32,000 nt of DNA from Candidatus Jordarchaeales archaeon. Its GTDB lineage: Archaea; Asgardarchaeota; Jordiarchaeia; Jordiarchaeales; Freyrarchaeaceae. Below are positions 2,250 to 31,762 of this stretch, piece by piece (the stretch's first letter is position 1; the number at the start of each line of letters is the position of its first letter). The stretch lies in assembly GCA_038889235.1 (NCBI GenBank), contig JAWAHN010000003.1, positions 413,703-445,702 on the forward strand. The letters are read 5' to 3'. The translations under genes and the position numbers were made by a program. Under the pieces are notes generated by a model. The model saw only the letters and a program-made list of their open reading frames with translations, did no database searches and was not told the origin of the DNA.

Positions 2250-3134
2250 TTACTGTTGCATTTTCAGCTGGGTGAATTTCCGAGCAACATAGAGAAGTAA
2301 AGCCAAAGTGATTACCGTTATCACTGCCTCGACTGTCAGGATATCTAGTACGTTTAATTGGTATAATACTGCGAACAAGTCGACCAGTATGTGCAAGCCA
2401 ACCGCTGCGAGGTAGAATTTCGCTGTTTGGTTTTTGGCGAGACCCCAGCCGACGATGCCAGTCAGTGAGCCGTGAAGCAGTACAACAACAGCCCTCTCGT
2501 AAACAGCTAAAGCAGGGAGCGAGAAGATTTGAGGAGTAAAGCAGAGCCCCACCAGGCTATAAGTGATTAAAAGTATCTTGAGGTCGACGAGCTGCAATAG
2601 GAGCTCTGGGGCTGTAAACTGCGCTATGAGCATTAACATCAACTCCTCCTGAGTCTCGGCGAAGAACAATGCTATGAACGAGGCTTCTTGTACAGCTTTC
2701 TGGATGAACGGCCTTGCATACCACAGAAGTGGGACAGTATATGTTAGAGTGGAAATCGAGAGAGAGGTGCCTGCGAGCACGAGTAAGGCTTCTCCCGACC
2801 CAAAACCTAACCCAGCCGATAGACCATAGAAGGCTCCGTTACTTGGTGTTATAGAAGCTCTCACCAGTGGGATTAGTAGCACTAGAAGTTTGGCTGCTTC
2901 TTCTATGAAGCCCGTTGCTAACAGGTCTACGCCGTAGAGTGCCAATCCTCCGAGGAAGAGGACGTACAGCTTGCGTAGGTAGGCGACATAGAACATCACC
3001 GCTGCTACTATGAATGCCACTAATACTGGTTTAAGAGACTCACCGGAGAACCTCCACCTTCGGAGTAGGAGCACCACCACTAGCGGATATAGGATACTGA
3101 AGAGCACAGCGAACGCCATGCTTAAACCATCCAT
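2250..3134 (-). CDS. PrsW-family intramembrane metalloprotease
   Basis: Multi-pass hydrophobic protein with PrsW motifs IEEAAK, GLGFGSGE, ERAVVVLLHG and LHILVD. Start placed at ATG 3132-3134, which follows a GAGGGGTGA RBS (the ORF track extends to 3323). Confidence 0.8.
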   Translation of the reverse strand: MDGLSMAFAVLFSILYPLVVVLLLRRWRFSGESLKPVLVAFIVAAVMFYVAYLRKLYVLFLGGLALYGVDLLATGFIEEAAKLLVLLIPLVRASITPSNGAFYGLSAGLGFGSGEALLVLAGTSLSISTLTYTVPLLWYARPFIQKAVQEASFIALFFAETQEELMLMLIAQFTAPELLLQLVDLKILLITYSLVGLCFTPQIFSLPALAVYERAVVVLLHGSLTGIVGWGLAKNQTAKFYLAAVGLHILVDLFAVLYQLNVLDILTVEAVITVITLALLLYVARKFTQLKMQQ

Positions 3135-3285
3135 GCACACTTCACCCCTCCCACATGTAGGGACAATAAATATTATTAATAATTTTGGTTTGAGACTGTG
3201 CGGCCGTATAGTGAACTGATTACCAAAAAGTATATGATTGAGGGATTCCATGTTTGGAAGATGTCCGCTTGAAGGGGGAGAAGTT

Positions 3286-4386
3286 ATGGCGAAGATCACC
3301 GTGTCCATAATAAAGGCGGACATAGGTTCGCTTGCAGGACACCATGTGGTTTACGATGAGTGCATCGAAGTGGCGAAGGATTGCTTGCAGAAAGGTGTAG
3401 ACGAAGGTATAATTCTAGATTACTATGTGACTAACTGCGGCGACGACTTGGAGTTAATAATGAGCCACAGGAGGGGTGAGTCAAACCCTGAAGTGCACAG
3501 GCTGGCTTGGGACACCTTCCTGAAGGCAGCTGAGGTTGCGCGTAAGTTTAAGCTGTACGCCGCCGGGCAGGATTTGCTAAAGGACACATTTTCAGGGAAC
3601 GTTAAGGGTATGGGTCCCGGTGTGGCGGAGCTCGAATTTGAGGAGAGGAGGTCGGATCCAGTAATATGCTTCATGGCGGACAAGACAGAGCCGGGAGCCT
3701 TTAACCTCCCGATGTACAAGATCTTCGCCGACCCGTTTAACACGGCTGGACTAGTGATAGACCCATCCATGCATGATGGCTTCGTTTTCGAGGTCTACGA
3801 CGTCATAGACCACCAGTACGTGAGGCTTTCGTGCCCCGAGGAACTCTATGACCTGCTCGCGATAATAGGGACGCCTGGAAGGTATGTTGTGAGGAAGGTT
3901 TACAAAAAGGATGGAACACCTGCAGCGGCCGTATCGACGACGAGGCTTAGTCTCATAGCCGGCAAATACGTAGGTAAGGATGACCCGTGCGCAATAGTAA
4001 GAGCACAACACGGGCTACCTGCAGTAGGAGAAGTTCTTGAGCCGTTTGCCCTCCCGTACCTCGTCGCCGGCTGGATGAGAGGAAGCCACCATGGGCCACT
4101 AATGCCCGTCTCGCAAAAGGATGCCAAGTGCACACGGTTCGACGGCCCACCGAGGATAGTTGCGCTAGGGTTCCAGGTTAGCGACGGTAAGCTTATAGGG
4201 CCAGCCGACCTCTTCGACGACCCAGCCTTCGACGAGGCGAGGAGAATGGCAAACCAGATAGCAGACTACATGAGAAGACATGGACCGTTCATGCCACACA
4301 GGCTTGGACCAGAAGAGATAGAATATACTACTCTGCCACAAGTTATCGAGAAGCTGAAAGACAAATTTGTAAAAGAAGAAGATTAG
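3286..4386 (+). CDS. fbp: Bifunctional fructose-1,6-bisphosphate aldolase/phosphatase (class V FBPase)
   Basis: N-terminus KITVSIIKADIGSLAGH, motifs CGDDLELIM, GNVKGMGPG, DKTEPGAFN, GKYVGKDDP (Schiff-base Lys) and GWMRGSH. ATG at 3286 follows a GGGGGAG RBS. Confidence 0.97.
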   Translation: MAKITVSIIKADIGSLAGHHVVYDECIEVAKDCLQKGVDEGIILDYYVTNCGDDLELIMSHRRGESNPEVHRLAWDTFLKAAEVARKFKLYAAGQDLLKDTFSGNVKGMGPGVAELEFEERRSDPVICFMADKTEPGAFNLPMYKIFADPFNTAGLVIDPSMHDGFVFEVYDVIDHQYVRLSCPEELYDLLAIIGTPGRYVVRKVYKKDGTPAAAVSTTRLSLIAGKYVGKDDPCAIVRAQHGLPAVGEVLEPFALPYLVAGWMRGSHHGPLMPVSQKDAKCTRFDGPPRIVALGFQVSDGKLIGPADLFDDPAFDEARRMANQIADYMRRHGPFMPHRLGPEEIEYTTLPQVIEKLKDKFVKEED

Positions 4387-9848: not shown

Positions 9849-11249
9849 TTGAGCAGGGGTTATGGTAAGGTTGACGAGGAAGTGCTTAGCAGGCTGGTCG
9901 ATGCTTTAGGCGAAAGGAACGTTAAAACAGACGTTGTCGAAAGGTACGCTTACTCAACTGATGCGTCACTTTTCAGCTCGCTTCCAGACGTTGTGGTGAC
10001 GCCGGAGAGCTGCAGCCAAGTTGTGGAAGTAGTAAAGATAGCCTCGGAAAAACGTATCCCGGTGACGCCTAGAGGCGGCGGGACAGGGCTGTGTGGTGGA
10101 GCGGTCCCCGTTTACGGTGGGATAGTCGTCGACATGAGCAAGATGAACAGGATACTGGAGGTGGACCTTGAAAACTTCTGTGTCGTCACCGAAGCCGGGG
10201 TTACCCCTGAAAATCTCAATAAGGAGCTTGCGAAACATGGCTTCTTCTTCCCTCCTTCTCCTGGAAGCAAGAGGATGTGCACAATAGGAGGCATGATCGC
10301 AACCAACGCTGGCGGAATGCACGCGGTGAAATACGGTGTCACAAGGAACTTCGTACTCGGACTAAAGCTGGTTATCCCTCCAGGAGAAGTCTTAAACTTA
10401 GGCGGCAAGGTTCTCAAGAGGTGTCTGGGCTATGATCTGATTCAGCTTGTCGTCGGCTCTGAGGGGACCCTTGGCATAATCACCGAGGCGACGCTCAGGA
10501 TACTGCCGTTGCCCGAGGAGTCAGCGGTCGTTGTCGCCTTCTTCGACGACATTTCTACCGCAGCTAAAGTGGTTAATGCCGTGCTCAGGAGGGTTGTACC
10601 CTCGGCGATAGAAATCCTGGATAGTAGATCGATAGAGGCTGTGAACCGCTATATGCCGTCACTCAACTTGCCACAGGCGGGGGCAGCCCTGTACTTCGAG
10701 GTTGAAGGAAGCAGGCCGGAGGTTGAAAGGCAGGTGCAAGTGATAGTGGAGGCGTGTAAGGCGCATGGTGGGAGAATTGAGTGGACCACCGATCCGAAGG
10801 AGAAGGAAAAGCTCTTGGCTGGAAGGGAAGTTGTCGGAGGAGCAATAATGAACGTAGATCAGAGGAGGGTGAGGGTTTACGAAGCCGAAGACGTCTGCGT
10901 CCCCATAGCTCAGCTCCCCCGCTTCGTTGAGGAGGCACACCGCATCTCGGAAAAGTACGGGGTTCCCGTCTGCATATATGGACACGCTGGGGATGGCAAC
11001 TGTCACTCCGGCATAATGATAGACCCAACTAACAGGGAGGAGTGGGTGAAGATGCGGGCGATGGCGAAGGAGATTTACGAACTAGCTGTGAGGCTTGGTG
11101 GGAACATAAGTGGGGAGCACGGAATAGGGCTGCTGAGGGCAGGGTACATGGAGAGCATAAATGAGAGAGCACTGCAGTTGATGAGAAAAGTGAAAGAGGC
11201 GTTTGACCCCCAGGGAATTCTCAACCCGGGGAAGATGGGGCTCGACTGA
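9849..11249 (+). CDS. FAD-linked oxidase, GlcD / D-lactate dehydrogenase family
   Basis: PRGGGTGLCGGA FAD-binding motif, TIGGMIATNAGG, GHAGDGNCH, GEHGIG, DPQGILNPGK. RBS GAGGTG at 9836-9841 suggests co-transcription with carB. Confidence 0.88.
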   Translation: MSRGYGKVDEEVLSRLVDALGERNVKTDVVERYAYSTDASLFSSLPDVVVTPESCSQVVEVVKIASEKRIPVTPRGGGTGLCGGAVPVYGGIVVDMSKMNRILEVDLENFCVVTEAGVTPENLNKELAKHGFFFPPSPGSKRMCTIGGMIATNAGGMHAVKYGVTRNFVLGLKLVIPPGEVLNLGGKVLKRCLGYDLIQLVVGSEGTLGIITEATLRILPLPEESAVVVAFFDDISTAAKVVNAVLRRVVPSAIEILDSRSIEAVNRYMPSLNLPQAGAALYFEVEGSRPEVERQVQVIVEACKAHGGRIEWTTDPKEKEKLLAGREVVGGAIMNVDQRRVRVYEAEDVCVPIAQLPRFVEEAHRISEKYGVPVCIYGHAGDGNCHSGIMIDPTNREEWVKMRAMAKEIYELAVRLGGNISGEHGIGLLRAGYMESINERALQLMRKVKEAFDPQGILNPGKMGLD

Positions 11250-11355
11250 TTCTAAAAACGAGTTGAGTGAACTGACCCTCCATAAGAGGACTGTAGGTCG
11301 TGATGGTGAAATCCTTTTAAGAAGGATGTGTGAAGAGAAGAGGGGGTGTGATTTC

Positions 11356-12249
11356 TTGAGCGGTGAACGAGTCGAGGGGGAAGCTAAGCTGTTAACGGGT
11401 GAGGAGTTAAAGAGGGAGGTCAGAGCTCTCAGGAGGGCGAGCGTCTGGTTTGCTGTCAGACACAACCTTTTCCTGCTGGCGCCTGCAGTACTAACCTTCA
11501 TCACCGTAGCACTCCTGATATTCGCTTCACTTAAGGCGGTTCAATGGATGCTGGACTCGTTCTACATAGGCAACCCCAGTCTCTGGTGGCTTCTCGGAGC
11601 CCCAACGCTGACTTTGACGGGCTTAAGCGTACCATTGACCCCGGCGTCACTTGCTCTAGCCCTCGCAGCGATACCAGTGATACACGTAGTAGCCAAGTTC
11701 GTGTACTTCCTCTACCTGCTCGTCTTCGCCAAAATCCTTGTCAAGCCGATACCCGAAGGCTACTACCCCTACACGCCTGCAAATCCCATCGTGAGGCAGT
11801 TCTTACTGAACGCCACGATAACTGGAACATTCCTGAGCTTCTTCGGTGAAGGACCATGGGCCCGAGCCGAGCTTAGCAGGTTAATGTACAAGGCTTTGGG
11901 GGCGAAGCTTGGGAAGGGAGTGTTCCCCGCGACTATATTGGACCCGTGGATGGTTGAAGTGGGAGATGGAACCATTATGGGGGCCTACAGCTGTATAGCG
12001 GGACACGCGATAGAAGGGGACAAGATAATGTTCGCCCGCGCTAAGGTGGGGAAAAACTGCGTGCTTGGCTTCCGCTCCCTCGTGTGGCCTGGAGCTGAGC
12101 TCGGCGACAACGTAATCATAGGGACTTACTCCATGGTTCCGAAGGGGGCTAAGCTTCCAAGCAACACCGTGTGGGTTGGAATACCGGTGAAGCTTGTCAA
12201 GAAAATAGGGGGAAGCGAGACACGCGAGGGTGATGCCGCCGGGAGCTGA
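11356..12249 (+). CDS. Membrane-anchored left-handed beta-helix (hexapeptide repeat) acyltransferase-like protein
   Basis: N-terminal transmembrane segments followed by hexapeptide repeats (VEVGDG, VGKNCVLG, LGDNVIIG) and a terminal WVGIPVK. Start placed at TTG 11356 after a GGGGGTG RBS and a CTTTTAAG TATA-like box near 11314. Confidence 0.7.
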   Translation: MSGERVEGEAKLLTGEELKREVRALRRASVWFAVRHNLFLLAPAVLTFITVALLIFASLKAVQWMLDSFYIGNPSLWWLLGAPTLTLTGLSVPLTPASLALALAAIPVIHVVAKFVYFLYLLVFAKILVKPIPEGYYPYTPANPIVRQFLLNATITGTFLSFFGEGPWARAELSRLMYKALGAKLGKGVFPATILDPWMVEVGDGTIMGAYSCIAGHAIEGDKIMFARAKVGKNCVLGFRSLVWPGAELGDNVIIGTYSMVPKGAKLPSNTVWVGIPVKLVKKIGGSETREGDAAGS

Positions 12250-12255
12250 AGGGTG

Positions 12256-12290
12256 CCCCTTTCCCAGGGGTTCCTCTTTTTTCTGTTTTT
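12256..12290 (+). terminator. Hairpin plus oligo-T tract after the acyltransferase gene
   Basis: CCCCT-ttccc-AGGGG followed by TTTTTT and TTTTT runs. Confidence 0.4.
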
Positions 12291-12425
12291 AAGGCCTCCG
12301 GCTTCCCAGCTCACTTTTGCAGGTCCCTTTTTCTAGGGGGAAAACCTTTATTTGAAAATGTTTTCATGTGAATTTTCTGGTCAAGCGTTAATCACACTGA
12401 AAGACTCTGATTGTGGTGTCTCCCA

Positions 12426-13106
12426 TTGAGTGATGCTGTCACCCTTATTGCGCGTGCCGTTGGAGGAGTTGAAGCCCGCCTCATAATACTTAGAGAGCTT
12501 TTAAGTGGGCCGAAGACCGGGGTGGAGTTGAGGTATGCCCTCGCCAGGAGACTGGGTGTCCCCCCTAGGGCGATCTCGGATGCGAAGATATACTTCAACC
12601 TTCAGGCCTTAGAGAACAGCGGAATCATAGTACGCTATAGGGATTGGAAGAACAAGTACGCTGAAATAAACCCGAAAATGCTTCAAGCCGTGAGGAAGTA
12701 TTTGAACATCACTGCTCCTGTTATGTGCCTCGCAGCCCTAGACTCTGAGCCCCTCCTTACAAAAGAGATAGGGTGGCGTTTAAGGGAGCAAGAAGGAATA
12801 TCGCCTAGCAGGTACATTTTCATAGCGGAGGACAAAATGAGGGGGAAAATCGGGGGGTTGACGGGGGAAGCGGAAGTGCTGTGGGTTGACGACGAGACGC
12901 TCCACGACTACGAGAGGGTTTACGAAATCGCCGAGGAAGCCCTCAAGAAAGCTATCTCTAAATATGAACCCATAATCGATGTGACGGACGGGACGAGGGT
13001 GACGGTCGCAGCCTTCCAGCAGCTCGCGTGGGAGTATGGGCTCCGCGTCTTCTACCTCAAGGGGAAGCCTTACGAGAAGAGAAGGGTGGTCTGGATTAGG
13101 GGCTAG
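12426..13106 (+). CDS. Winged-HTH (ArsR/PadR-like) regulator with a C-terminal CARF-like domain
   Basis: N-terminal RLIILRELLSGPKTGVEL...IYFNLQALENSGII wHTH. C-terminal Rossmann-like domain with IIDVTDGTRVTVAAF...LAWEYGLRVFYL, resembling the CARF D-x-T-x-G-x-K/R motif. Start placed at TTG 12426 (GGTG RBS). The stop overlaps the comB stop (CTAG, 13103-13106). Confidence 0.65.
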   Translation: MSDAVTLIARAVGGVEARLIILRELLSGPKTGVELRYALARRLGVPPRAISDAKIYFNLQALENSGIIVRYRDWKNKYAEINPKMLQAVRKYLNITAPVMCLAALDSEPLLTKEIGWRLREQEGISPSRYIFIAEDKMRGKIGGLTGEAEVLWVDDETLHDYERVYEIAEEALKKAISKYEPIIDVTDGTRVTVAAFQQLAWEYGLRVFYLKGKPYEKRRVVWIRG

Positions 13107-13786
13107 TACTCGACGAACATGCCGCCTTTAATCACAGGCACCACGCTGCTCGCGTTTAGCTGGGAGCAGTACTCGACATCCCTCCAGAGTCCTATGGAGG
13201 CGAGTTCTTTGGCGCTCGGCGAGTTCAAGACGCACTCTTTGTAGTCCGGTGGCTCCCTTCCTTCGACAAAGCACTTTATAACGCACGCCGTCACATAGTC
13301 CTCCGGGCTAAACTCCCCTCTCCTCCCGACGTGGACCACAGTGAGCTTCCTCCCAGTCTTAGTAGCCTCACTTCCAGCTGCTTCAGCCACAGCAGAAGCG
13401 TTCCTCAGGCAGCCTGCAAATACGGCTGGAGCCCCCATCGCCTGGCAGACCGCTTGCGTGAAGTTAGTGGTGGTCAAGACTACTATCTTTCCCTCAACGA
13501 CGTCACGGGTAAACTCCAATGGGGAGTTGCCGAAATCGAAGCCGGGGATCTTCAGCCCTCGCCTCTCGCCCGCCAGCAGGACGCCAACCCCTCGAGTCCT
13601 CAAAAGCTCCCTCGCCTTTCCTACAGCTTCTTCAATAGTGAGCGCTGGGACGACGCCCACGCCTCCATTTTCTAGTATTGTTGTAACTGTGGTACTGGCT
13701 CTCAGCGTGTCCACTACAACCAATATGTGCCCCTTCAATGCGGCTCTTAGAGCGCCTTCGGCGCCGAATGCCAACCTAACTATCAT
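13103..13786 (-). CDS. comB: 2-phosphosulfolactate phosphatase
   Basis: VVDTLRASTT, LAGERRG, FDFGNSP, LTTTNFT, GCLRNASAVA, EDYVTA. ATGA overlap with comA. Confidence 0.92.
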   Translation of the reverse strand: MIVRLAFGAEGALRAALKGHILVVVDTLRASTTVTTILENGGVGVVPALTIEEAVGKARELLRTRGVGVLLAGERRGLKIPGFDFGNSPLEFTRDVVEGKIVVLTTTNFTQAVCQAMGAPAVFAGCLRNASAVAEAAGSEATKTGRKLTVVHVGRRGEFSPEDYVTACVIKCFVEGREPPDYKECVLNSPSAKELASIGLWRDVEYCSQLNASSVVPVIKGGMFVEY

Positions 13787-14580
13787 TTCAACCCCTTTAA
13801 GAGGAGGTCTGGCATCGTATCCCCTCTGAGCCCGAGACGCAACGTTTCGAGCGACACCACGTCCTCCGGGTGAATGTTACCAAGGTTAACGTCTGGACCA
13901 AACCTCTTAATCAGCCACACTTGTTGAGACCTTAGTGGAGCCTCCCATATGATCTTCTCGTGTGGAACGGCTTGCACGATTGACTCGACAAAGTCCTTCT
14001 TCACGTCCCCCTTCGCGTCATAGGGCCCTATTCCGATGCCGCTCTCCCTTGCTTCGACAACAACGTAGTCAGCCCCGGCTTCGAGTTCACGCTTCATCAG
14101 CTCAACTCTTTCCGTGAGGGGGATGGATGCGTCCTCCTCTGGCTTCTTCTTTCCAACCTCGGTGATCACAGGGTTAAAGCCAAACCTTTTAGCCAGCCTT
14201 AGCAGTCCAAGCTTTTCTTCAACATTCATTCTAACAATTCCGTTCGAGATTTCAAGCGAGGAAAAACCTAACTCGCGCAGGAAAGAAAGAAACTCCTCAA
14301 CCTTATCTCTGGCGTAGGCAGCCTCCACGCTCGATCCGCCTGGGAGCGCCATCACCCCAAACTCCTCACAAAGCTTAATCTTCTCCTTCACAACATTCAG
14401 GGGCATGATGAGCCAAGTGCACCAGCCAAACTTCCAAAGGTCAACGTACTCGCCCGCAGCCTCCAAAACACTACGCATTTCCGACACACCAATACCACGG
14501 TCGATTACCAAAGTTAAACCGCGCGACCTAGGTTTTGAGCACCGCTTCACGAGGGAGAGCTCAAACAACTGGGGACACAT
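13783..14580 (-). CDS. comA: Phosphosulfolactate synthase
   Basis: KPRSRGLTLVIDRG, VDLWKFGWCT, LEISNG, EVGKK, VVVEARESG, IIWEAP, VNLGNI, LETLRLGLRGDT. RBS GGTGGT. Confidence 0.95.
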   Translation of the reverse strand: MCPQLFELSLVKRCSKPRSRGLTLVIDRGIGVSEMRSVLEAAGEYVDLWKFGWCTWLIMPLNVVKEKIKLCEEFGVMALPGGSSVEAAYARDKVEEFLSFLRELGFSSLEISNGIVRMNVEEKLGLLRLAKRFGFNPVITEVGKKKPEEDASIPLTERVELMKRELEAGADYVVVEARESGIGIGPYDAKGDVKKDFVESIVQAVPHEKIIWEAPLRSQQVWLIKRFGPDVNLGNIHPEDVVSLETLRLGLRGDTMPDLLLKGLK

Positions 14581-28271: not shown

Positions 28272-28685
28272 TTACGTCCCGTTTTCACGCTTTTCTTTTG
28301 AGTTGCCTAGTATGCTCCTAACTTTCTTGACTGTCCCCCTAAGCTTCTGGAGCATTAGCCCAAGCTGGTGTTCGGGTATCCCTGCGGCGACCAGTATCAC
28401 TTGACCAGCTTCCATGGCGATGATGAAGCCCTTGGTCCCGTGTACTATACACTCTGTCACATCACCCTGGATGAACGCTTTAGAAATAAGGTTGCATGCG
28501 GAAAAAAGGCTGAAAGCGCTCTCTAGGGCCTTCTCCGGGTCAGAGTACTTGAGCCTTTCAACTACCATGTTCCCCGAGAGGTCCAACACTAGGATGTCGA
28601 CATTTCCTGGGTAGTTCTCGTTCTTCAGGAGAGTATTCAATTTCTCTGCAATCTCCCTACTTATGGGACTAGCGCGCTCTATCAA
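28272..28685 (-). CDS. Roadblock/LC7 (LAMTOR2-like) domain protein
   Basis: Helix, ILVLDLSGNMV, helix with AFSLFSAC, ECIVHGTKGFIIAMEAG, ILVAAG, and QLGLMLQKLR match the roadblock fold pattern. Start probably TTG 28685. Confidence 0.75.
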   Translation of the reverse strand: MIERASPISREIAEKLNTLLKNENYPGNVDILVLDLSGNMVVERLKYSDPEKALESAFSLFSACNLISKAFIQGDVTECIVHGTKGFIIAMEAGQVILVAAGIPEHQLGLMLQKLRGTVKKVRSILGNSKEKRENGT

Positions 28686-28881
28686 GGTTTCCTCGCCTCG
28701 GAAAAAGAAGGGGCTACAAGAACACCACACACTGAGAAGCGGTGAAATATAAAGATTCTAGTTAAGACATACATTTCTTCAGCTTTGGAGCCCAAGGGGG
28801 TTCCATGCTTCTTCACGGAGGAGGAAAAAGAAATATTGAGGATAGCGCGATGTATCAGCAAGAGGCACGGAGGAGAGCGAT

Positions 28882-29370
28882 TTGGGTGCATTCGCTCCCG
28901 GTGGTCTCGAAAGCGCGGCAACGCTTCCGAAAAATATCTTGAAATACTGCATGCAGTGCTCGCTGTGCTCGAGCGTCTGCCCCACAGCCCGCCTCGTCAA
29001 AGAGTTTAACCCTAGACGCATAGTTTGGGGAGCGATCCTGGGTCTCGAGGATGACGCTGTGGAAAACGGCAGCGTGTGGTTCTGCCTTAGTTGCCACCTC
29101 TGCTCCGAGGTATGCCCCATGAAGGTGAAGGTTTCAAGCCTGATGACGTTCTTCAAAAACCTGCTCGCTGAAAGGGGGAAAATCCCAGAGGGGGTCCTAC
29201 AGGAGGCGAGCATGATTTTCAAGACTGGGAGAGGGGTGCCATACTCGCCCGCCGTCGAGAAGAGGAGGGCTTCTCTATCGCTTCCCCCACTTCCACCCGT
29301 TGACATCGAGGAGATTAAAAAGCTGCTGGGCAGGCTGAAGCTACCGATCGAGGGAGGAGAGGGGAAATGA
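28882..29370 (+). CDS. hdrC: Heterodisulfide reductase subunit C paralogue
   Basis: CMQCSLCSSVCP and WFCLSCHLCSEVCPM. TTG start follows a GGAGG RBS. ATGA overlap with the next gene. Confidence 0.88.
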   Translation: MGAFAPGGLESAATLPKNILKYCMQCSLCSSVCPTARLVKEFNPRRIVWGAILGLEDDAVENGSVWFCLSCHLCSEVCPMKVKVSSLMTFFKNLLAERGKIPEGVLQEASMIFKTGRGVPYSPAVEKRRASLSLPPLPPVDIEEIKKLLGRLKLPIEGGEGK

Positions 29371-31167: not shown

Positions 31168-31246
31168 TTAACGCCACCAGAACTTTGTTATATGGGGAAG
31201 TGTTTTAAAGTTTCCCTGCACCGAAGGGAGAAGTGGTGACCTGAAG

Positions 31247-31762
31247 TTGCTTGCCGGCAAACTGAGGGAGTTGCTTAAGGGGGCACGTAGGGTCGCAGTG
31301 ATAGGCGTGGGGAGCAGGTTTAGGGGGGATGACGCGCTAGGTCTGGAAGTAGCCAGGAGGCTTAAAGGAGCCGGGCTGAGGGGCGTGCTGGTGGTGGAGG
31401 CTGAAACCGTGCCTGAGAACTTCACAGGCGAGCTTAGAAGGTTCCACCCAAGCCACGTCTTGCTCGTGGACGCAGCGCACTTTGGAGGTAAACCGGGGGA
31501 TGTCGTCGTAGCGTCCGGCTCCTCATCCATGCGCGGAGTTTCTTTCTCGACGCACCACATGCCGCTTTCCATGTTCGCAAGATTCGTTGAGGCATCAATA
31601 GGCTCAACGGTCGTCCTGGTTGGGGTCCAGCCGGGTAGCCTCCACGGGGAGGGGCTCTCACCCGAGGTGGAAGACGCGGTGTCAATTCTCACAAAGATTT
31701 TAAGCGAAGTCCTTTCAGAATTACCGGGCTTAGAGGCGGTGTCCGAAATTGGAGAGAATTAG
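31247..31762 (+). CDS. hycI: Hydrogenase maturation endopeptidase (HycI-like)
   Basis: VIGVGSRFRGDDALG, ETVPENFT, LVDAAHFG, STHHMPL, VGVQP...EGLSPEV. Confidence 0.9.
   Translation: MLAGKLRELLKGARRVAVIGVGSRFRGDDALGLEVARRLKGAGLRGVLVVEAETVPENFTGELRRFHPSHVLLVDAAHFGGKPGDVVVASGSSSMRGVSFSTHHMPLSMFARFVEASIGSTVVLVGVQPGSLHGEGLSPEVEDAVSILTKILSEVLSELPGLEAVSEIGEN

Follow-up and report, generated by a model that had tools for sequence, protein, structure and literature searches.

A winged-helix CARF protein encoded next to actin in many Asgard archaea stands apart from actin in a Freyarchaeia-like lineage

The window analysed here is a 32-kb stretch (32,000 nucleotides) of a Candidatus Jordarchaeales genome (contig JAWAHN010000003.1 of assembly GCA_038889235.1) from a Freyarchaeia-like lineage of the Asgard archaea. 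At positions 12426–13106 (+), it carries a gene for a protein of 226 amino acids, hereafter the regulator, in which an N-terminal winged helix-turn-helix is joined to a C-terminal CARF domain. The regulator is an orthologue of a protein whose gene is paired head-to-head with that of actin in a wide range of Asgard archaea, and this pairing has been lost in the lineage of the window. It is probable that the regulator is a homodimeric, ligand-gated transcription factor of the CARF_m5 family, the counterpart of an actin-paired Asgard regulator that has become uncoupled from actin in this lineage. We know of no work on the regulation of the eukaryote-like actin of Asgard archaea. A protein that is single-copy and phylum-wide, has the makeup of a DNA-binding sensor, and is encoded head-to-head with actin offers a concrete candidate for such a role that can be cloned.

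Fold and family of the regulator

An N-terminal winged helix-turn-helix and a C-terminal CARF domain had been proposed in an earlier reading of the DNA without database searches (the sequence-only reading), and both are upheld by structure prediction, structural comparison, profiles, and sequence signature. The AlphaFold2 model, built on nine homologues (mean predicted local distance difference test [pLDDT], 84; predicted template modelling score [pTM], 0.78), comprises a winged helix (residues 8–98) followed by a six-stranded alpha/beta domain (residues 104–230); these residue numbers refer to the open reading frame (ORF) of 231 amino acids that is counted from the first in-frame TTG. The winged helix-turn-helix, delimited by the secondary structure of the model, is encoded at 12432–12704 (+), with its recognition helix around S-D-A-K-I-Y-F-N-L-Q-A-L-E; in VIA-align, residues 19–99 match the winged helix of hsRosR with a Z score of 9.7 and a root-mean-square deviation (rmsd) of 1.8 over 70 residues.

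The CARF domain (residues 101–231; 12711–13103, +) is delimited by VIA-align and Foldseek. It aligns with more than 40 solved CARF entries (Z 10.2–14.2, rmsd 2.0–2.9 over 114–127 residues), among them VC1899 (Z 14.2), Can2 (14.1), Cdn1 (13.6), Cam1 (13.2), Cad1 and Csm6 (13.0 each), and, with lower scores, Sis0455 (12.9), Sso2081 (12.1), and Csa3 (10.2–10.5). The comparison by AlphaFold and Foldseek that the sequence-only reading had suggested gives the same picture: the domain models as a CARF fold, and the best Foldseek matches in the PDB are Csm6, Can2, Cdn1, Cam1, Card1, and Sso2081 (E 3e-6 to 1e-4, probability 1.00). Residues 101–231 of the model show the expected Rossmann-like arrangement of six strands, of which strands 5 and 6 form a hairpin. 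The sequence also bears the two marks described for CARF domains (PMC4012209). The first, the signature [DN]x[ST]xxx[RK] immediately behind strand 4, is matched by the loop D-V-T-D-G-T-R, read from the sequence at 12978–12998 (+); the second, a residue of polar or alcoholic type behind strand 1, is matched by L-D-S-E-P at that place. The stretch cited for the CARF domain in the sequence-only reading, IIDVTDGTRVTVAAFQQLAWEYGLRVFYL, is found in the ORF translation. By fold, profile, and signature, the C-terminal domain is a CARF domain.

Searches of the regulator protein itself against Pfam and NCBIfam return no family above threshold; the Pfam scores for PadR (0.018) and HTH_3 (0.0013) both fall short of the cut-offs. 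A profile of 25 family members retrieves from the PDB an ArsR protein (3f6v, 4.9e-6), a PadR-like protein (1xma, 1.8e-5), Cdn1 (2e-4), and Card1 (1.4e-3), and relatives of the regulator match the Pfam families CARF_Card1 (5/25, best 3e-8), Cas_APE2256 (2/25), and Csa3_N (2/25). In PADLOC-DB, the profile PDLC01987 ("CARF_m5--CARF") covers residues 15–224 of the regulator with positions 9–195 of its 195 (159.6 bits, E 2.3e-47). The same profile finds three copies in the source genome, with the regulator as the best match, and none in 14 control genomes. The regulator is almost certainly a member of CARF_m5, which is said to be a minor family of the 2020 census of the CARF superfamily. The reversal of the domain order relative to Csa3, emphasized in the sequence-only reading, is true of the model, but because PDLC01987 spans both domains, it represents a catalogued minor CARF family and not a new architecture. 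A literature search that excluded the 2020 census yielded no mention of wHTH-CARF or CARF_m5 and no relevant link between Asgard archaea, CARF, and actin.

Predicted dimer

Dimerisation through the CARF domain, on which the sequence-only reading had let its proposal depend, is predicted in silico: two co-folded copies reach an interface score (ipSAE) of 0.51 (runs, 0.51, 0.51, and 0.48), and the best of three controls scores 0.00. The mark set for ipSAE is attained by 20 of 30 proteins whose structures were solved as homodimers and, among proteins solved as a single chain, by 1 of 23; these counts apply only roughly to a run on a custom alignment. At least 94% of the contacts are common to the runs, and the pLDDT of the partner is 89. 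The predicted interface consists of residues 160–163, 186–199, 202, 208–213, 222, and 224 (numbering of the 226-amino-acid protein), all within the CARF domain. It is formed by the strand-4 loop, the next helix, and strands 5 and 6, with R191 opposite R191 on the axis. The predicted pairing is the canonical CARF dimer.

Pairing with actin and its loss

Gene neighbourhoods, whose survey the sequence-only reading had recommended, were compared over about 10 kb around the regulator in 36 genomes, with neighbours located by tblastn. Of these 36 loci, which come from at least 14 GTDB families, 30 have actin head-to-head with the regulator at a distance of 150–620 bp; the actin genes at the surveyed loci are 75–100% identical to Asgard actin queries. 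Metagenome contigs, including some named after Baldr- and Hermod-type archaea, independently show the same divergent arrangement of actin and regulator. In its fuller form, the metagenome pattern continues beyond the regulator with genes for a ComB-like protein, a CDP-alcohol transferase, and a nucleoside triphosphate (NTP) transferase, all on the strand opposite to the regulator. The tail-to-tail position of the ComB-like gene, often with overlapping stop codons, is a feature of one subclade: it occurs in families f1, f2, f4, and f16 and also in contigs named after Loki- and Hermod-type archaea, and the gene does not adjoin the regulator in Baldr-, f27-, and Thor-type loci.

The pairing is missing from the window and from its family mate G115, in both of which a hexapeptide-repeat gene lies upstream of the regulator, from G125, and from G124, which lies at a contig end. 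The two further exceptions have actin 3.3 kb away (G127) or a different orientation (G122). In the source genome, actin is encoded on another contig (C1:1005559–1006692), between radical-SAM and Dus-like genes, and is 89% identical to the actin of f2. Because the regulators of the window and G115 are sister to those of the actin-adjacent f2 genomes, the loss of the pairing in the Freyarchaeia-like lineage is derived. The gene for the hexapeptide-repeat (LbH) protein (11203–12249, +) encodes a long hydrophobic N-terminal half; together with genes for carbamoyl-phosphate synthase and a flavin adenine dinucleotide (FAD)-oxidase, it occupies the place of actin in the sister family, and the three mark the uncoupling rearrangement.

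The link of the regulator to energy metabolism that the sequence-only reading had drawn from its position at the end of a run of mvh and com genes is not borne out by the same survey: adjacency of mvh genes to the regulator is confined to the lineage of the window, comA is found together with comB in f1 and f2 alone, and the conserved neighbours are actin and the ComB-like gene. A functional tie between the mvh genes and the regulator was rejected on the first of these grounds.

Distribution and phylogeny

The family is rare in sequence space, with 23 representatives at 50% identity among 1.8 billion proteins. The source names include Freyarchaeota, Jordarchaeaceae, Hodarchaeota, Lokiarchaeota/Promethearchaeota, Baldrarchaeia, Hermodarchaeota, and Thorarchaeota; Nezhaarchaeales, Thermosphaera, and Thermofilum have weaker, paralogue-type relatives. 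When 400 genomes of the Asgard phylum were searched with a profile, 149 gave matches. Strong, full-length, and mostly single-copy matches are present in families f1–f6, f14–f17, f26, f27, f30, and the Thor-type families (79 of 89 genomes). Families f19 and f20 yield weak partial matches only, and the profile search finds the regulator in none of 31 genomes of f8 and none of 12 genomes of f13. A search with hmmsearch --max for a hidden orthologue upstream of actin in f19, f8, and f11, with two closed genomes included, found none.

A maximum-likelihood tree of 56 family members places 37 orthologues apart from 19 paralogues. The branch between the two groups is weakly supported (SH-aLRT 69), and the sister relationship of the window and G115 to the actin-adjacent f2 genomes is fully supported (SH-aLRT 100). 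The most conserved positions among the orthologues are those of the winged helix, where R18, L22, G28, G32, Y56, N58, L62, and R90 are kept in all sequences, a pattern that suggests purifying selection. Clade A of the orthologues, which includes the window, keeps the loop D-x-[ST]-x-G-x-[RK] across deep divergence. In the Thor-type orthologues, the basic residue of the CARF signature is replaced (D-L-S-x-G-P-P, D-L-S-x-G-P-T, and similar), and their sensor may be degenerate or retuned. These proteins of about 260 amino acids still adjoin actin (L056–L066, L073, L074, and L079–L082), and their recognition helix is changed to V-T-D-P-K-L-Y-F-N-T-K-H-L-E.

CRISPR context and co-occurrence with Cas10

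The 32-kb window contains neither cas genes nor CRISPR arrays, as the sequence-only reading had stated; its claim that the regulator lacks a CRISPR context nevertheless fails at the level of the genome, which has type I-A and III-B cas genes, Cas10, and arrays. The 22.7-kb contig C4 carries the type I-A genes Csa5, Cas7, Cas5, Cas3 helicase, and Cas3 HD, a true Csa3 in which CARF precedes the winged helix (Csa3_N, 4e-29), an RNA ligase, a Csm6 (CARF-6H-HEPN), a CARF7 (Cas_APE2256) protein, and a Cmr2-type Cas10 of 1152 amino acids with GGDD at residue 819 and HD at residue 23. A CARF_m5 paralogue of the regulator (C4:16385–17053) lies inside this cas locus, on the same contig as Cas10; the defence island (L086 7060–20000, L087) holds four different CARF proteins within 5 kb. 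A third CARF_m5 copy (C1:94643–95236; L002 1498–2091, −; 197 amino acids; PADLOC, 5e-22) is located between genes for a formyltransferase and a transporter of the major facilitator superfamily, away from cas genes and actin, and has A-P-R instead of the G-T-K/R loop.

Arrays are located at C1:12–1564, C2:110–3876, C2:459061–460298, C5:28–1249, and C3:466354–470008, the last on the contig of the window and about 20.6 kb past its end. They lie at contig ends; one repeat type, with CCCCACAAATGGGGATTGAAAG-like words, reaches 49 or more copies, and the array at C2:459061 has a second repeat type.

Among the 400 Asgard genomes, the palm2 domain of Cas10 is present in 69, and its presence does not track the regulator. 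Family f4 has the regulator in 3/3 genomes (two closed genomes included) and Cas10 palm2 in 0/3; the respective counts are 13/19 and 0/19 in f14, 7/7 and 0/7 in f15–f17, 2/3 and 0/3 in f26, and 79/89 and 12/89 in the Thor-type families. In nine genomes, the source genome among them, paralogue-type matches are encoded on the same contig as Cas10. Since the source genome encodes a Cas10 with GGDD together with arrays, cyclic oligoadenylate is plausibly made in this organism, and cyclic oligoadenylate from the type III-B Cas10 is a possible ligand of the regulator there. It cannot be the general ligand of the family, because most regulator-bearing genomes are without Cas10, and the ancestral ligand was probably something else.

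Gene structure, promoter, and expression

Judged by its conservation, the ORF of the regulator is a real gene and not a chance reading frame, because full-length homologues occur in the 149 Asgard genomes and substitutions are concentrated at codon position 3. The ORF counted from the first in-frame TTG extends over 12411–13106 (+; 231 amino acids). Translation likely starts at the TTG at 12426, as the sequence-only reading had it: homologues open with M-S-D-A-V at the matching position, and a Shine-Dalgarno-like word, GGTG, at 12415–12418 precedes this codon by 8 nucleotides. The TTG at 12411 was dropped as a start, given the starts of the homologues and the conserved word ATTGTGGTGTC upstream of 12426, through which the reading frame is not maintained among relatives.

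The regulator appears to have its own promoter. Between the regulator and the upstream hexapeptide-repeat gene, which stops at 12249, lies a hairpin of terminator type with a T-run (12255–12281, +) that sets the two apart. An element resembling a B recognition element and TATA box, GAAAACCTTTATTTGAAAA (12340–12358, +), is a putative promoter element of the regulator; it is kept in four f1 relatives as AAAAAGTTTATTTTA, about 70–85 nucleotides before the start. At its 3' end, the regulator abuts comB, as the sequence-only reading had described, with an overlap of the two stop codons by 4 nucleotides. The convergent orientation of the two genes argues against their co-transcription.

There is also a hint that the regulator is an expressed, monocistronic gene. 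DNA of the window occurs in hot-spring metagenomes from two studies, and a sediment metatranscriptome from a third contains a 745-nucleotide contig of a 96.5%-identical relative that covers 12431–13175 and thus little more than the regulator. The contig has 26 differences from the window; 15 of the 20 listed within the ORF fall on codon position 3 in the frame of 12426. Word depth is 40.6 for the regulator contig, 13.3 for the contig of the hexapeptide-repeat gene (11357–12243), and 8–9 for comB; none of the contigs from this library covers 12244–12430 or comA. Among the raw RNA reads of run X5, of which about 3% were read, none falls on the stretch.

Search for an operator

The actin promoter region of the source genome (C1, about 1006700–1007200), which includes GTCAACAATATAGTTGAT, contains the palindrome GTCAAC-AATATA-GTTGAT (C1:1006807–1006824; L085, about 2749–2766) approximately 35 bp upstream of the TATA-like word AAAATTAAAATAG of actin. 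The intergenic region of f2 has ATCAAC-N6-GATGAT at the corresponding position, and a degenerate form of 18 bp, RTCAWC-N6-GWTGAY, is common to f1 and f2 (L088, L089, L049, and L084). It matches the source genome at four sites; the three others are inside ORFs. From its sequence and position, the palindrome upstream of actin in f1 and f2 is a candidate activator site. As an operator of the regulator it was dropped: it is missing from the window and does not extend past f1 and f2.

Proposed function and alternative explanations

In the proposed mechanism, the ArsR/PadR-like winged helix would bind DNA, and the CARF domain would dimerise and thereby shape a pocket at the two-fold axis, with the D-V-T-D-G-T-R loop as its lining; a nucleotide or oligonucleotide in this pocket would reposition both winged helices. 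Orthologues of the regulator are transcribed divergently from actin in most Asgard lineages, and a rearrangement has separated the two genes in the Freyarchaeia-like lineage. Because of this split, any control of actin in that lineage must act in trans. The individual steps differ in probability. That the protein is a dimeric, DNA-binding regulator is very likely, and the chance that it is still gated by a ligand is slightly better than even. Its targets may comprise actin, its own promoter, or both. Conserved divergent gene pairs that include a regulator commonly mean that the partner is regulated; for actin as the target, the case is nevertheless tentative, and the idea is somewhat doubtful.

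Several observations weigh against the proposed mechanism. The adjacency to actin could be inherited synteny rather than a sign of regulation, and a longer block comprising genes for the ComB-like protein, CDP-alcohol transferase, NTP transferase, Sua5, and Cgi121 is also partly conserved. Several large Asgard families are without the pair of regulator and actin; closed genomes of 4.4 and 6.0 Mb are two of the cases. Because CARF dimers are among the solved structures, the result of the dimer prediction shows likeness rather than proof, and because the Thor-type clade lost the basic residue of the signature, ligand gating does not extend to the whole family. RTCAWC-N6-GWTGAY was not found in the window, this palindrome, with spacers of 0–14 allowed, is no commoner in the other families than in shuffled sequences, and no 6- to 8-mer is common across the lineages beyond AT-rich, TATA-like words. 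The RNA evidence consists of assembled contigs of a relative, which give neither strand nor transcript ends, and RNA libraries can carry contaminating DNA.

Among the alternative explanations, a role as a Csa3-like CRISPR ancillary protein, which would sense cyclic oligoadenylate made by Cas10 and adjust host transcription during infection although its gene lies outside the cas locus, draws on the Cas10 and the several arrays of the source genome, on the full CARF signature of the window protein, on the Cas10-linked paralogues in nine genomes, and on the nearest solved folds, which are receptors of cyclic tetra- and hexaadenylate (cA4/cA6). It is improbable: orthologues occur where Cas10 was not found (f4, f14, f15–f17, f26, and most Thor-type genomes), the cas locus of the source genome already has a separate paralogue, and the orthologues group apart from the Cas10-linked paralogues with their canonical T-K loop. 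Control of the adjacent com or mvh genes by a nucleotide, and thus of sulfolactate/coenzyme-M-type chemistry or energy metabolism, is very improbable. The tail-to-tail position of a ComB-like gene in f1, f2, f4, f16, and the Loki- and Hermod-named contigs speaks for such a role; against it stand the convergent orientation without a promoter common to the regulator and comB, the absence of a ComB-like neighbour in Baldr-, Thor-, and f27-type loci, and the narrow occurrence of both comA (f1 and f2) and mvh genes (the lineage of the window) at these loci.

The CARF domain might also serve solely as a dimerisation module of a DNA binder that is constitutive or otherwise controlled, with the actin adjacency as inherited gene order. 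This would agree with the loss of the basic signature residue in a Thor-type clade whose winged helix is invariant, with an operator search that found none, and with a break of the pairing in the window lineage without visible decay of the gene. The retention of D-x-[ST]-x-G-x-[RK] in the window protein and all of clade A, and a pairing with actin that persists where all other neighbours differ, which is unusual at the depth of a phylum, make this explanation as improbable as the CRISPR ancillary role. A ligand-gated regulator of the CARF_m5 family, uncoupled from actin in the window, is the reading that we favour.

The wider notion that a CARF factor, recruited from CRISPR-type signalling and gated by a nucleotide or oligonucleotide, controls Asgard actin is unlikely at present. 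If true, a CARF sensor would have moved from antiviral defence to housekeeping control, and the expression of the cytoskeleton would answer an intracellular second messenger, possibly antiviral cyclic oligoadenylate in Cas10-bearing lineages and another ligand elsewhere. The window would then be a natural case of uncoupling, with the regulator working in trans. The question of the ligand is sharpened by the fact that most carriers are without Cas10. What the window mainly offers is a correction: the regulator has a catalogued architecture, its genome is rich in CRISPR systems, and the mvh/com neighbourhood is not the one that is conserved. The regulator is an ordinary member of a catalogued family with a previously unreported, testable genomic association, that with actin. 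To this, the window adds the assignment to CARF_m5, a lineage in which the pair is uncoupled, a clade of cas-linked paralogues, the mismatch between the occurrence of regulator and Cas10, and the apparently degenerate loop of the Thor-type proteins.

Other genes of the window and its relatives

The gene convergent with the regulator, comB (13103–13786, −), encodes a member of the 2-phosphosulfolactate phosphatase family (PF04029, E 9e-52) and forms a comA-comB pair (13103–14580, −) in the Freyarchaeia-like lineage. Farther along the minus strand follow mvhA, mvhG, and mvhD, from which an hdrA-like gene diverges; no mcr gene was seen in the window. In the sister family f2 (L008 6038–8984), a split pair of thiamine pyrophosphate-dependent enzymes resembling sulfopyruvate decarboxylase lies downstream of comA-comB. 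In several Asgard lineages, ComB-like genes (PF04029) without ComA run together with those of a CDP-alcohol phosphatidyltransferase and an NTP transferase (L013 2742–5152, L015 6650–9762, L017 6662–8793, L050, L051, L068, and L077). From its enzyme families, this run looks like the cytidylyltransferase, synthase, and phosphatase of a pathway to an inositol-phosphate-type solute or lipid head group and not to coenzyme M.

The remaining genes of the window belong to central metabolism and translation. Four ORFs on the minus strand, in the size range of 152–357 amino acids, are without a Pfam match, three of them (28272–28730, 28779–29306, and 31168–31692) at E ≤ 1e-3 and one (2250–3323) at E ≤ 1e-5.

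Comparison with known systems

A precedent for CARF gating of transcription outside CRISPR immunity is RtcR, a CARF-AAA+-HTH activator of an RNA repair operon (PMC4012209). RtcR is bacterial and differs from the regulator by its AAA+ sigma-54 activator module, and no sequence match between the two was seen.

The regulator shares its two modules with Csa3a and Csa3b, the CRISPR-associated CARF-wHTH transcription factors of Sulfolobales. Both have a CARF dimer with a pocket on the axis, a predicted one in the regulator, and the presumed logic of both is that a ligand alters DNA binding; the CARF domains superimpose with Z 10.2–10.5 and an rmsd of 2.8–2.9 over 118–120 residues. In Csa3, however, CARF precedes the winged helix, whereas in the regulator the winged helix (residues 8–98) precedes CARF (residues 104–230). 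The Csa3 profile does not match the regulator at a PADLOC E value of ≤ 0.01, and there is a weak match to CARF3 (4e-4 over 50 residues); by contrast, the true Csa3 of the source genome scores 4e-29 (Csa3_N) and 2e-40 on Csa3 profiles. Unlike Csa3, the regulator is encoded outside the cas locus, and its orthologues are common in genomes without Cas10.

At the level of the CARF_m5 family (PDLC01987), the regulator is no different from other members. It has the same architecture and length as the Cas10-linked wHTH-CARF m5 paralogues from type III loci of Asgard archaea, with relatives in Thermoproteota, which also match PDLC01987 (8e-17 and 5e-22). Ancillary genes of type III systems adjoin cas10, which is the case for the paralogue at C4:16385–17053 but not for the regulator, as Cas10 is encoded on contig C4. 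The Cas10-linked paralogues adjoin genes for Cas10, Csm6, or CARF7, have the canonical loop D/E-x-T-G-x-T-K-P and a different recognition helix, and are placed on the other side of the tree from the orthologues of the regulator.

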